Assembly: GCA_040225955.1 (NCBI GenBank)
Contig: JBECUL010000036.1
Coordinates: 1 to 22,026, forward strand
From: Candidatus Asgardarchaeum abyssi
GTDB lineage: Archaea; Asgardarchaeota; Asgardarchaeia; Asgardarchaeales; Asgardarchaeaceae
DNA: 22,026 bases
Reading direction: 5' to 3'
Part shown: positions 5,642-14,294 of the stretch, piece by piece
Position numbering within the stretch: position 1 is the first letter of the stretch
Layout: each line of letters opens with the position of its first letter
Made by a program: the position numbers and the translations under genes
The notes under the pieces: generated by a model
The model's input: the letters and a program-made list of their open reading frames with translations, nothing else
Told to the model about the DNA's origin: nothing
Database searches by the model: none

Positions 5642-6136
5642 TTAACGCTTATATCCTATTTTTCTGAGGAATTCCTTTCTCTCTTTTATCTTATCTTCAT
5701 CTTCTACTCCTAAGGGTGTAAATCCGTCTACTACTCCTAAAACGCCTCTACCTTGTTCTGTTTTAGCAACTATTACTTGTACAGGATTTGCAGTTGCACA
5801 GAATATTCTAAGAATCTCTGGAGTGTTTCGTAGATAAGGCAATACATTGATAGGATAACCATTTTTCAAGAATACAACAAAAAAATGTCCAGCTCCAACC
5901 TTCTTAGCCGCTTCAATAGCCCTATCTATTAGTTCCTTATCGTTGCCATCAAATCGAATCAATCTATCTCCCGATGCCTCACAAAAAGCAATGCCAAACT
6001 TTATGTGTGGCGACGCATTGACAATAGCCTCATAAACATCTTCCACAGTTTTAATGAAATGTGACATACCTAAGATTATATTACATCCTTCTGGGACCTT
6101 TATATCAACTACATCGAATTCTACTTTTGCGCACAT
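5642..6136 (-). CDS. DUF355 adenosine-specific kinase family protein
   Basis: [62 protein letters not shown]; ATG 6136 follows GGAGGGTGG, so it is preferred over 6199. Confidence 0.9.
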
Positions 6137-6255
6137 TGTACCACCCTCCAGTTGATAATTTAGGTTTTCGATCCTAATATTATCACAATAAATTATCAAT
6201 AAATTATCTCTAATAATTATTAAGATGAAATTTCAACTGTTAAGATATGCATAAC

Positions 6256-6263
6256 TTTAATAA
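6256..6263 (+). promoter_or_regulatory. Putative TATA box for the GC-rich RNA candidate
   Basis: TTTAATAA ending about 25 nt before the GC-rich block starting at 6289; weak evidence in an AT-rich genome. Confidence 0.35.
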
Positions 6264-6288
6264 TTATTTTTGAGTTATCAATCTTAAA

Positions 6289-6394
6289 GGGTAGTCCCGT
6301 GGTTGAGTAAGGGCAGAGATTTTCAATGAAGCTTCTTTTCCCCCACGGGGTACACCGATGCGGCGCCGGCTCTCGAGTCACCGGCGCCACAATC
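6289..6394 (+). ncRNA. Candidate structured small RNA, H/ACA-guide-like (two hairpins, each followed by ACA)
   Basis: About 60% GC (hand count) in an AT-rich spacer; CCCGTGG 6296-6302 pairs with CCACGGG 6343-6349, then ACA 6352-6354; GGCGCCGG 6362-6369 pairs with CCGGCGCC 6381-6388, then ACA 6389-6391. Confidence 0.55.
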
Positions 6395-6531
6395 TTCTAT
6401 AAACACAAAATAGATTAAGACCAATATTAATAATATTTTTTAGTTTTTAATAATAAGAGATTTTTTCTCTATTGCGCTAGTATAATAATCCTATGGAGAT
6501 ACATGACTTAGAATTGTCGTGTGGGTTTAAT

Positions 6532-10789: not shown

Positions 10790-11287
10790 ATGAGATATAT
10801 ATTAGTCAGTGCATGTCTCTTAGGTTTAAACACAAGATATAATGGTAAAAACAATTTCAGAGAAGAGATTGTCAAATTAATAGAAAAAGGTATTATTCTT
10901 ATTCCAGTTTGTCCTGAACAATTAGGAGGTCTTCCAACTCCTAGAGAAAATGCAGAGATTATTGGAGGAGATGGAAGCGACGTATTAAGAGGGACTGCAA
11001 GAGTTATAACTAAGAGTGGCCGTGATGTGACAAATGAATTTATAAAAGGGGCCAAGGAAACATTAAAAGTCGCTAGGTTATACAATATAACGCTTGCAAT
11101 ACTTAAGGCAAAAAGTCCTTCTTGTGGAAAGGGAGTTATATATGACGGAACATTTACATCATCTACCAAAAATGGTGATGGCGTTACCGCTGCCTATCTG
11201 AAAATGAATAATATTAATGTATTAACCGAGAATGAGTTATCTGAGATACAAAAACTTTACAGCAAATCGAATAAAAATAAAAGTTAG
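10790..11287 (+). CDS. DUF523 / 2-thiouracil desulfurase family Fe-S protein
   Basis: ILVSACLLG..TRYNG, VCPEQLGGLPTPRE, LKAKSPSCG, GDGVTAA. Confidence 0.92.
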   Translation: MRYILVSACLLGLNTRYNGKNNFREEIVKLIEKGIILIPVCPEQLGGLPTPRENAEIIGGDGSDVLRGTARVITKSGRDVTNEFIKGAKETLKVARLYNITLAILKAKSPSCGKGVIYDGTFTSSTKNGDGVTAAYLKMNNINVLTENELSEIQKLYSKSNKNKS

Positions 11288-11327
11288 ACCACGTCTATGT
11301 TGAATTAAAAATAAAGAGTGATGCGAG

Positions 11328-11444
11328 TCACTCTTCTTCTTCCCAGTCCTCTTCCTCTTCCCATTCTTCTTCCTCTTCTTCCCAGTCCTCCTCTTCTTCC
11401 CACTCTTCTTCTTCCCAGTCCTCTTCCTCTTCAAACGGTCGCAT
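11328..11444 (-). CDS. 38-aa acidic Glu/Trp repeat peptide MRPFEEEEDWEEEEWEEEEDWEEEEEEWEEEEDWEEEE (not in ORF track)
   Basis: ATG 11444, TGA at 11330-11328, SD GAGGTGA 6 nt upstream; the GAA/GAG variation within the repeat is synonymous in this frame. Confidence 0.75.
   Translation of the reverse strand: MRPFEEEEDWEEEEWEEEEDWEEEEEEWEEEEDWEEEE
11331..11432. repeat. Imperfect purine/pyrimidine-skewed tandem repeat, (GAR)4-6(GAC)TGG units on the minus strand
   Basis: Repeated TTCCCAGTCCTC / CTCTTCTTC blocks on the plus strand; this is the coding sequence of the acidic peptide. Confidence 0.85.
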
Positions 11445-11450
11445 TGCACA

Positions 11451-11490
11451 TCACCTCTTTCAGCAGATAATAACATTAACTACAATATAA
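11451..11490 (-). promoter_or_regulatory. SD (GAGGTGA) and putative TATA (TTATAT) for the acidic peptide gene
   Basis: Plus-strand TCACCTC at 11451-11457 and ATATAA at 11485-11490; the spacing would put a transcription start just upstream of the SD. Confidence 0.5.
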
Positions 11491-11715
11491 CTTATTTGGT
11501 AATACACTTAGAGGTTTATTATTTCTTTTTTTTAAGAAAATATCCTTTTAAAATTGTTATTTAGAAGAAATATTAAAGAATTACACTTATTTAAGAAAAT
11601 AATAATTTTTTATGCCTTTGTTTAAAAAAAAGATAGATAATGTTTAATATTAAGATGGGTCTAAGAAATATTGCACCGAATATTATAAGATGGGTAAATG
11701 ATTACTGGTGAAATC

Positions 11716-12719: not shown

Positions 12720-13376
12720 TTGCTTCATGGAATTATTATAACGAGATTTGATCTAAAAATAGGACCACTAGCAGAATACGTTTATCCTAAAGATTTTATG
12801 GGGGAGGGAGAACTATTTGACTTATCGTTTAGAATTTGGACTGGAGCTGGTTTCTTAAATTTATCCGAAGCAAAGGGTTTCACTTACCAAACTTATAATC
12901 CTCACAAAAAGTTTGGAATTACTATTTTTGATACTACAGATACTTTAGGTACGTACGCGATTACATGTCTTTTCTCCGAAGATGATTCCGCGTTAATAGT
13001 TCCAAATATTCGAAAGTTTCAGGATGTCATCTCGAAAGCAAATGAAAAAATAAAAGATGGCAAGATGCCAGAATCAGTGTTAGAAGAATTATATACTCAA
13101 CTCGTTAAATTATATAATGAAATAAAAGAAAGATCATTTGCTCCAAGAGAAGTAAAAATGCTACCTCAAGAAAAAAGGCAAAAGTTAGTTAATGGACTAT
13201 CTGTGGTATTTTCAAATATAAGAAAACTTAAAGAATTAGCAGCAAATTTAAATGATGAGGCCCTAAAGAAGGAACTATTAGCATCTATTGAAGTAATATC
13301 ATCAGCACTAATGACCATAGCATCCTCAGTTTTAGAATCTGATGAAATAAGTCAACTTCTTTCTAAGCTTCTTTAA
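12720..13376 (+). CDS. uDENN/NPRL2-like longin domain protein with helical C-terminus
   Basis: GIIITRFDLKIGPLAEYVYPKDF N-terminus (F-D/H-x3-GP-x6-P motif), followed by helix and strands GITIFD, YAITCLF; TTG start. Confidence 0.65.
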   Translation: MLHGIIITRFDLKIGPLAEYVYPKDFMGEGELFDLSFRIWTGAGFLNLSEAKGFTYQTYNPHKKFGITIFDTTDTLGTYAITCLFSEDDSALIVPNIRKFQDVISKANEKIKDGKMPESVLEELYTQLVKLYNEIKERSFAPREVKMLPQEKRQKLVNGLSVVFSNIRKLKELAANLNDEALKKELLASIEVISSALMTIASSVLESDEISQLLSKLL

Positions 13377-13388
13377 GAATAAATATAG

Positions 13389-14294
13389 TTAGGATTTCTC
13401 CTCACTTTTCTTTAACAATCTTTTTGAAATAGCCTCTTTTAGTTCGCTCATATATGTTAGTGAGGGTTTCTCCTTCTTTTTAATCATTTTCTCTTCAATT
13501 AGATACTTTAATAACAGATCCAACCTATTTGTTTTCGGCATAAATTTTTCTGGTTCAAAAATTAAAGTCTTTAATCTCTGAATATCAATAGTACCATCTA
13601 CGGCTATTTCTTCTAATAATGCCATATTTAGGTTTAATTTTTCCTTAGAGAGTGAAGATAAGGTATCCTTACTTAATGTGCTATCGAAGGGATATAATGA
13701 AAAAGCAATTAAGGATACAACCTTTTCATAACTTCCTCTAAATCTACCAGATAAGGTTTCTAATATTTTTATGATTTTTGATATTTCATCTAAGTTTGAT
13801 AATCGTGGAATTATTAGCTCACTCGTTGAAGTTTTTATTACTTGTGAGATTTCTTTTATTAGGGAAGCTTCATTAATACCTGAGACTAGAAGCATAACAA
13901 AATCCATTAAACTTTGGTCAAATAATTCTGTTAGTGGATATCTATGAACTTGTAATCCATTTAATCTAAAGAGAGGAATTATAGCAGCTCGTTTAACAAA
14001 GAATGAGAGAAAACTTTCGTACATTGATTGAAGCGGCTCTGATTCTAATGATTTAATAGTATCCAATGCATTTTTGTCTACAGATATGTTTAAAATTAAC
14101 ATATCAGAATCAGTTTTAACAATATTGTAAGAAACATCATTAAATGTCGTTTTTCCAACACTAACTTGTAGAATAATATCATATGCTCCTATTCCGAGAA
14201 TGAAAGTGTCATTCAACCTAATAATGAATGCCATCAAATTATCTTCAAGCTTTCTTAGTAAGTCACTATAAACTTCATGGGATTTAATTATCAT
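13389..14294 (-). CDS. Hypothetical protein, possible C-terminal winged helix
   Basis: 301-aa ORF with GGAGG SD; LLEEIAVDGTIDIQRL...LDLLLKYLIEEKMIKK resembles a wHTH. Confidence 0.7.
   Translation of the reverse strand: MIIKSHEVYSDLLRKLEDNLMAFIIRLNDTFILGIGAYDIILQVSVGKTTFNDVSYNIVKTDSDMLILNISVDKNALDTIKSLESEPLQSMYESFLSFFVKRAAIIPLFRLNGLQVHRYPLTELFDQSLMDFVMLLVSGINEASLIKEISQVIKTSTSELIIPRLSNLDEISKIIKILETLSGRFRGSYEKVVSLIAFSLYPFDSTLSKDTLSSLSKEKLNLNMALLEEIAVDGTIDIQRLKTLIFEPEKFMPKTNRLDLLLKYLIEEKMIKKKEKPSLTYMSELKEAISKRLLKKSEEKS

Follow-up and report, generated by a model that had tools for sequence, protein, structure and literature searches.

In the genome of Candidatus Asgardarchaeum abyssi, a short minus-strand reading frame spells out runs of glutamate punctuated by tryptophan, which raises two questions: Is this frame a gene and, if so, with what does its product work? 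I examined it within a window, the whole stretch of 22,026 nucleotides analysed here, which belongs to an assembly of 2.64 Mb in 189 contigs with 34% GC. Its genes include one for ESCRT-II and one for an actin that scores 448 bits with the Pfam Actin profile; judged by these two, the actin being eukaryote-like, the genome is that of an Asgard archaeon. An earlier note on this DNA had described a frame in which DW and W alternate, with 26 Glu, 3 Asp and 5 Trp, and the minus strand of 11328-11444 reads just so. The product, MRPFEEEEDWEEEEWEEEEDWEEEEEEWEEEEDWEEEE, has that composition and a net charge of about -28; it contains neither Cys nor Lys and a single Arg, so that tryptic workflows would miss it. 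Its codons are ATG-CGA-CCG-TTT, then 34 that are GAA, GAG, GAC or TGG alone, then TGA. The features of the locus are listed here in order of position.

11303..11336, minus strand: terminator-like 9-bp hairpin and T-run, containing the stop codon of the microgene
11328..11444, minus strand: coding sequence of the microprotein, 38 codons plus TGA (MRPF, five E4-6(D)W units, final EEEE)
11445..11697, no strand: divergent intergenic region of 253 nt, AT-rich, which should hold both promoters
11451..11457, minus strand: Shine-Dalgarno-like GAGGTGA, 6 nt 5' of the ATG
11485..11490, minus strand: TATA-like TTATAT, the inferred promoter, about 45 nt 5' of the ATG, in a block shared with the related locus L225
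11698..12501, plus strand: divergent partner gene, 267 aa, pI 10.2, 56 K+R against 20 D+E

The GAGGTGA six nucleotides before the ATG and the TATA-like element had both been proposed before, and they lie, in the direction of reading, at 11457-11451 and 11490-11485. The block that contains the Shine-Dalgarno-like sequence, TCACCTCTTTC, is common to the window and L225. In the terminator-like element the arms GAAGAGTGA and TCACTCTTT enclose the loop CTCGCA and are followed by ATTTTTAATT; one such site was found at the microgene where shuffled sequences gave an expectation of 0.1. With its own Shine-Dalgarno sequence, TATA-like box and hairpin plus T-run, and with a convergent gene downstream of it, the microgene appears to be an independent transcription unit. 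The convergent gene (10790-11287, plus strand) encodes a 2-thiouracil desulfurase (PF04463), and L225:577-1050 does likewise. The convergent neighbour in Desulfurococcales loci (161-175 aa) is unrelated to it and belongs to no Pfam family; because it is not PF04463, the adjacency to 2-thiouracil desulfurase is conserved with L225 only.

The only ORF of at least 60 aa at the locus is the +1 K/R frame (11237-11476, 79 aa), just as the earlier note had remarked that the open-reading-frame track held a K/R-rich shadow frame alone. The exact peptide is absent from a collection of 15 billion proteins, and Tandem Repeats Finder reports the tract as a tandem repeat of 15-18 nt. Could such a frame arise by accident? 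Since the microprotein is the sole acidic/Trp ORF across all six frames of the whole 2.6-Mb genome, relaxed criteria included, it is not a chance product. From the signals around it and the relatives described below, I conclude that the E/W frame is a genuine and previously unannotated gene, and that it is presumably translated.

The closest relatives differ from the window in an instructive way. On a 5.4-kb contig from a close strain (run X1), the ORF carries GAA>GAG, GAC>GAT and one extra GAG before the stop; the change GAC>GAT would mean Thr>Ile in the K/R frame. The contigs of runs X2 and X3 each have a 3-nt deletion within the ORF, and the metagenome contig L126, which is 98.5% identical, has a 3-nt deletion (one Glu codon fewer) together with GAG>GAA. 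L225 came to light through its copy of the basic neighbour, which is 37% identical, and it shares the synteny of the window. Its ortholog is present as a 39-aa gene in public gene calls; this reads MRPFEEEEDWEEEDWDEEDEDWDEEEDWEEEDWEEEEEE and keeps MRPFEEEEDW...EEEEEE. The K/R frame of L225 lacks a start codon, is closely preceded by a stop and has a tail unrelated to that in the window. The proposal that selection acts on the protein is borne out by these comparisons, in which relatives differ by synonymous changes and 3-nt in-frame indels alone. Two kinds of counter-evidence were also sought: frame-breaking indels, of which there are none in X1, X2, X3, L126 or L225, and conservation of the K/R frame in place of the E/W frame, which is broken in L225 and not kept across the family.

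Does the microprotein have relatives further afield? Species-representative genomes were scanned with the DNA pattern W-E4-x0-3-W-E4-x0-3-W, which yielded at least 119 loci. Among the matches listed, these are nearly all from Thermoproteota, where they are mostly 20-40-aa ORFs of the form M-x(1-4)-(E3-8 W1-2)n. In an even sample the pattern was found in 57/201 Thermoproteota genomes, a reversed control giving 0 matches, and in the five genomes checked it marks a single locus each; with this genome counted, members are single-locus in all six. Within the phylum of the window itself this E-only pattern is rare (6/301 genomes). Operationally, the family comprises ORFs of at most 60 aa that begin with Met and a short N-terminus whose last residue is aromatic or hydrophobic, followed by at least 60% D/E with a W every 4-8 residues; further criteria are a stop directly after the repeat with a C-terminal Trp, and adjacency to either a ChrB_N-like basic protein (Asgard type) or ABCE1 (Thermoproteota type). 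Set beside 103 members (among the matches listed) and 21 Asgard members, the window peptide, with MRPF and its E4DW/E4W units, has the composition and spacing of this definition. It lies by the basic protein and not by ABCE1. Its stop is flush with the repeat but its last residue is Glu (EEEE) and not Trp. Among the matches listed, W is the C-terminal residue in 91/103 members and E in 9/103; a Glu C-terminus also occurs in the L225 ortholog and in the Asgard genome G006. By composition and context, the window peptide belongs to a so far undescribed family of acidic/Trp microproteins in archaea, of which it is the Asgard, Glu-rich form; a literature search found no paper describing the peptide family or the pair of peptide and basic protein.

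The family also speaks to the reading frame. Among the 103 members in the matches listed, 93 have an in-frame ATG for the E/W frame, and the stop of this frame lies flush with the repeat (interquartile range 0-0 codons); for the other two frames an ATG occurs in 13 members and internal stops in 6-9 members. Within the same set (among the matches listed), a Shine-Dalgarno-like 5-mer lies 2-11 nt upstream in 66/103 members, and T5+ follows the stop in 71/103 as against A5+ in 6/103. The GAA fraction of Glu codons is 0.59 in the peptides against 0.47 in neighbouring genes, and is higher in the peptide at 82/102 loci, which are drawn from the matches listed and are not independent of one another; the window member itself has 0.65 against 0.71 in its neighbours, that is, no GAA excess. 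Together with the strain-level changes, the positions of starts and stops indicate that the E/W frame is under frame-specific selection.

In Thermoproteota the setting of these microgenes is dominated by one gene. ABCE1, recognised by Fer4_RLI and two ABC domains, is the next gene on the same strand in 78/104 loci among the matches listed, with a spacer of 53-495 nt save at two loci (median 129 nt, among the matches listed). Six loci, again among the matches listed, are divergent from an RPB9-like/ABCE1 operon. About 15 Thermoproteota loci (L010, L049, L064, L080 and others) also encode a protein of about 96 aa that has a zinc ribbon of the RPB9/TFS type at its N-terminus; its gene either separates the E/W microgene from ABCE1 or shares an operon with ABCE1. 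The ABCE1-side microproteins resemble the window peptide closely: Met, then 1-4 residues often ending in Phe, then E3-8 runs parted by W or DW, in 20-40 aa with their own Shine-Dalgarno sequence and T-run. The window peptide differs in that it is not by ABCE1, ends in EEEE, belongs to an Asgard genome and has a basic ChrB_N-like partner. Its own genome carries ABCE1 on a different contig (C47 of G000, locus L123:1468-4275), 54 nt downstream of an Asparaginase_2 gene and with no peptide between the two. At 21 Bathyarchaeia loci among the matches listed, the E/W microgene sits between Asparaginase_2 and ABCE1. Because this synteny is shared with Bathyarchaeia and the peptide is missing from it, the arrangement suggests loss of the peptide gene from this position, or its transfer elsewhere, in the Asgard lineage.

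The C-terminal [DE]-W of the family presumably resembles the C-terminal Trp signal of Lto1 and of CIA clients, which is said to serve Fe-S maturation of Rli1/ABCE1. A signal of this type does not apply to the window peptide, which ends in Glu.

Acidic runs at the N-terminus of a nascent chain trigger intrinsic ribosome destabilisation, as in MgtL. Might the frame then be a cis-acting leader, in which the acidic nascent chain destabilises the ribosome, or a polypurine repeat that codes for nothing, with no functional peptide in either case? It has such acidic runs near its N-terminus, many members stand upstream of ABCE1, and the tract is a tandem repeat. Yet in the window no gene on the same strand lies downstream and a terminator-like element follows the stop, six loci are divergent from ABCE1 and a strand-specific T-run follows 71/103 members (both among the matches listed), and conservation is specific to one frame. 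The microgene RNA shows no significant structure (z = 0.87), the terminator-like hairpin being the only stable element, and an Rfam search of it gave no match. Because the downstream gene is convergent and a terminator intervenes, this explanation is effectively excluded in the window, and overall I regard it as most improbable.

If the window peptide does not stand by ABCE1, what does it stand by? The divergent gene encodes a lysine-rich protein with a net charge of about +36. A single-sequence search found weak homologues of it in 8 other Asgard genomes (19-30% identity, 233-280 aa, pI 10-11.1), and an acidic/Trp micro-ORF adjoins the basic gene at 7/8 of these loci, the eighth ending at a contig end. 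With a family profile, the basic protein is present in 83/301 Asgard genomes and mostly as a single copy; it follows the Asgard families, occurring in 54/76, 17/19 and 3/3 genomes of some and in 0/68, 0/29 and 0/21 of others. A divergent acidic/Trp micro-ORF, typically M-x-F-D/E...W, lies about 190-430 nt upstream at 27/30 further Asgard loci. The signature W-acid4-7-W-stop occurs in 45/301 genomes and, among the matches listed, its in-frame matches are confined to families that have the basic protein, most of them within about 1 kb of it. The background is one acidic/Trp ORF per 2.6 Mb. Metagenome loci of closer family members have the pair in 3/3 cases. Of the four sets of loci from distant homologues, two (L258; L263 and L264) have nothing more nearby than short poly-Glu ORFs with a terminal W and the other two have none, so that pairing is looser among distant homologues than among closer members.

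The pair is not uniform in every respect. Same-strand and convergent cases exist beside the dominant divergent layout, the Asgard genome G006 has its E/W peptide and its basic gene on different contigs, and the charge of the peptide does not covary with that of its partner (rho 0.16, p = 0.39, n = 30). Among the loci compared, no other neighbour of the pair is conserved across lineages. Lysine-rich micro-ORFs directly follow the acidic microgene at L244:2713-2775 (plus strand, MAKKKPAKKAKPATTSKKKK) and L241:2695-2766 (plus strand, MMGKKKGKAKQKGKTKTDVKQKK); the window has none at this position. On the far side of the basic gene, the window encodes proteins of 218 and 301 aa without a Pfam family (12720-13376, plus strand, and 13389-14294, minus strand), and L225 has an equivalent pair of 218 and 308 aa after its basic gene.

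The recurrence of the two genes together indicates that microgene and basic gene are a conserved two-gene module, and the pairing appears far too regular to be incidental. The earlier note had offered several roles for the peptide. One, a mimic or chaperone for a basic protein, gains support from the conserved pairing with a pI-10 protein in Asgard families and some Thermoproteota. Another, a precursor of a modified peptide, is not supported: no modifying enzyme (radical SAM, YcaO, ATP-grasp and similar) is found among the conserved neighbours, the lone neighbour kept across lineages being the basic protein, which has neither an enzyme family match nor invariant residues. The docking motifs of WASP, kinesin light chain and COPI, to which the note had likened the peptide, would be possible analogies.

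The basic family reaches beyond Asgard archaea, its profile matching 14/201 Thermoproteota genomes. At about 10/12 of the Thermoproteota loci one finds a bare E/W peptide or else a zinc ribbon of the LysW type, with an acidic tail whose last residue is aromatic. The bare peptide stands beside the basic gene at L268, L269 and L270, and further away at L265. At L271-L273 and L276, zinc-ribbon proteins of 61-98 aa, with a LysW-type ribbon and a tail ending EEDLF or EEELF, lie beside or upstream of the basic gene; the tails of L271-L273 have no Trp, and that of L276 ends EEDLF and has a single Trp. L274 shows the acidic tail alone, a contig end intervening. At L023 (Methanomethylicia; 6123-6404, minus strand), a PF21344 zinc ribbon (30.2 bits against a cut-off of 27) has a complete E/W tail, and 172 nt separate this gene from the basic gene downstream of it. 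IMG calls members of the zinc-ribbon cluster 'ribosomal protein S27E' or 'RpoP', which looks like misannotation. In the Asgard genome G005, L207:5009-5554 (minus strand) encodes a protein of 181 aa that combines a Cys-rich domain (C..DGICTCWCW ... YCALCP) with a long E/W tail at its end; it has no Pfam match and is another natural fusion of the tail, here to a possible metal-binding domain.

How do the two contexts relate to one another? Three Thermoproteota genomes have both modules, their ABCE1 having an E/W microprotein of its own about 100 nt upstream. Since these genomes carry both with separate acidic genes, the ABCE1 and basic-protein modules are distinct and can coexist. A strict either/or rule, by which the peptide stands by ABCE1 or by the basic protein, is rejected by the same three genomes. 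The basic protein was also searched for in four genomes of the ABCE1 type and was not found. Because Thermoproteota peptides are mostly by ABCE1, in genomes where the basic protein was not found, the function of the family cannot depend on the basic partner everywhere.

These findings bear on the idea that the window peptide is a general polyanion of translation like the ABCE1-linked peptides, a helper or mimic in ribosome recycling (compare the acidic motif of eIF3j and the stalk tail of aP1), to which the basic neighbour would be incidental or one of several clients. The shared design of M-x-aromatic, acid runs and spaced Trp fits it, as do the 78/104 loci by ABCE1 (among the matches listed) and the genome's own ABCE1, which keeps its Bathyarchaeia-type Asparaginase_2 neighbour but has no peptide, as a relocation of the peptide gene would leave it. 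Against this, the genome's own ABCE1 is on another contig, the three genomes with both modules make the contexts look functionally distinct, and the pairing with the basic protein is too regular for an incidental neighbour. I consider this account quite unlikely for the window peptide.

What kind of protein, then, is the partner? A Pfam search of the 267-aa protein from the window gave no match. Searching 1.84 billion proteins with the family profile returned 109 cluster representatives, and among 78 homologues PaaX_M (PF20803) matched 10/78 (best E 5.5e-8) and ChrB_N (PF20229) 4/78. An AlphaFold2 model built with the 78 homologues (pLDDT 85, pTM 0.83) has a beta-alpha-beta-beta-alpha-beta unit of lower confidence at the N-terminus, a second ferredoxin-like domain at residues 97-172 and three long helices at 175-266. 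Foldseek returned weak matches only, to PaaX 8a39 and the Cas2 entries 2ivy, 6k2e and 1zpw. In the ESM-Atlas, hypothetical proteins of Thorarchaeota and Bathyarchaeota match the model with TM 0.70-0.78, and bacterial ChrB models reach TM 0.43-0.51 over residues ~85-267. A wide fold search with residues 172-267 gave generic three-helix bundles only. The model and the homologue profiles point to two ferredoxin-like domains, the second of the ChrB_N/PaaX_M (Cas2-like) kind, followed by a C-terminal three-helix bundle. What the protein may have in common with the N-terminal domain of ChrB and the central domain of PaaX is a predicted Cas2-like ferredoxin fold, along with the profile matches of some of its homologues; it differs in having neither the wHTH of PaaX nor ChrB_C, in being far more basic, in being archaeal and in having an acidic microprotein as its partner. 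The alignment of the 78 sequences contains no invariant or nearly invariant column and, for want of an invariant residue, the partner appears to be a binding protein rather than an enzyme.

That same alignment weighs on a further possibility, that the locus is like a toxin-antitoxin pair in which a nuclease of Cas2/VapD fold is neutralised by a small acidic antitoxin. The Cas2-like central domain and the small acidic gene adjacent to it would suit such a pair. The want of any invariant or nearly invariant residue in 78 homologues speaks against it, and the family is mostly single-copy, with a presence that follows Asgard families (54/76, 17/19), unlike mobile loci; its orientation is variable and no mobile-element context was seen among the loci compared. 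A toxin-antitoxin role is very improbable.

The ChrB and PaaX assignments invite another reading, in which the basic protein is a DNA-binding regulator of the divergent promoter and the microprotein is the output that it controls, acting elsewhere (for example on ABCE1, ribosomes or other basic proteins). The Pfam names and the atlas fold matches speak for it, ChrB and PaaX both being regulators, and the divergent layout with a shared intergenic region of 190-430 nt dominates. The window and L225 have short conserved intergenic blocks in common, among them TGTATTACC and AGTGTAATT (minus strand), and at Thermoproteota loci the peptides are tied to ABCE1 where the basic protein is not found. The partner model, however, has no winged helix-turn-helix, its N-terminal domain being predicted as beta-alpha-beta-beta-alpha-beta; orientation is not fixed, since same-strand and convergent pairs exist; and some lineages have the tail on a zinc ribbon whose gene immediately precedes the basic gene in one operon, an arrangement more in keeping with a protein complex. 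A regulator and its target are an unlikely explanation of the pair. In the intergenic region the motif TAAGTGTA occurs twice on the minus strand (11503-11510 and 11582-11589); these repeats and the conserved cores may be candidate regulator sites, or may reflect chance in AT-rich DNA.

At this point the reading I favour, with about even confidence, is that the peptide is a disordered polyanionic partner of the basic protein and acts as a nucleic-acid mimic, inhibitor or chaperone. It draws on the conserved gene pair and on analogy with known acidic proteins, and both the physical binding and its consequence are what I infer from them. The microgene would produce a 38-residue, intrinsically disordered polyanion studded with Trp, which would dock along the basic surface of the 267-aa protein, the Glu/Asp runs providing electrostatic attraction and the Trp side chains serving as hydrophobic anchors. 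By mimicking nucleic acid, the peptide could block, release or chaperone a nucleic-acid-binding partner. The conserved element would be the aromatic-punctuated acidic tail, free or tethered to a zinc ribbon, beside a strongly basic and apparently non-catalytic protein. A complex prediction with the peptide and the 267-aa protein as alignments, run without controls, gave a score of 0.00, which is no verdict on binding.

Comparable arrangements exist elsewhere. DSS1/Sem1 is a tiny, disordered, acidic adaptor of eukaryotes, a DNA mimic whose conserved Trp residues are anchors and which binds basic surfaces of its partners. Like it, the window peptide is tiny, disordered, acidic and Trp-containing; unlike it, the peptide is a pure repeat in place of two defined motifs and matches no profile, since 0/21 members matched the DSS1/Sem1 profile PF05160 at E <= 10 and the window peptide had no match at E <= 0.01. 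In LysW, a Trp-containing acidic tail docks on positively charged partner proteins. The likeness to LysW, with its PF21344 zinc ribbon and acidic tail, lies in the L023 relative, whose zinc ribbon carries an E/W tail; the window peptide differs in that it lacks a zinc ribbon, Cys and a C-terminal acceptor Glu of the EDWGE type, and no LysX/Z/Y/J/K genes are near the window microgene. Finally, YbiB has a positively charged groove for DNA, which the disordered acidic C-terminal domain of ObgE occupies in competition with DNA (PMC10123104). There too a polyanion occupies the nucleic-acid groove of a basic protein, as proposed here by analogy only; that system differs in being bacterial, in having a tail that belongs to a large GTPase and in a partner of unrelated fold (TrpD2). 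A wider and highly speculative idea, to which I give little credence, would be that in Asgard and TACK archaea free or zinc-ribbon-borne acidic/aromatic tails are portable docking modules for dedicated basic receptors, forerunners or functional equivalents of DSS1/Sem1-type adaptors, and that the window peptide is a trans-acting subunit switching a nucleic-acid-binding protein on or off.

Several elements of this picture appear to be new: the Asgard-type setting of a Glu-rich member that looks like those of Thermoproteota, the data from close strains on selection of the E/W frame, the assignment of a partner without invariant residues to ChrB_N/PaaX_M, and the LysW-zinc-ribbon fusions together with the presence of both modules in one genome. 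Any model that gives the family a single function is constrained by the two conserved contexts, ABCE1 and the ChrB_N-like protein, because they are able to coexist in one genome. Gene callers and protein databases miss the microgene, yet it is under frame-specific selection, and its partner gene is kept across Asgard families though the partner proteins are only ~15-25% identical. The synthesisable 38-mer and the 267-aa protein make a concrete pair that can be tested at the bench. Should the peptide indeed bind a basic protein that itself binds nucleic acid, and mask it, the two genes would constitute a simple regulatory module, perhaps widespread in the closest archaeal relatives of eukaryotes.
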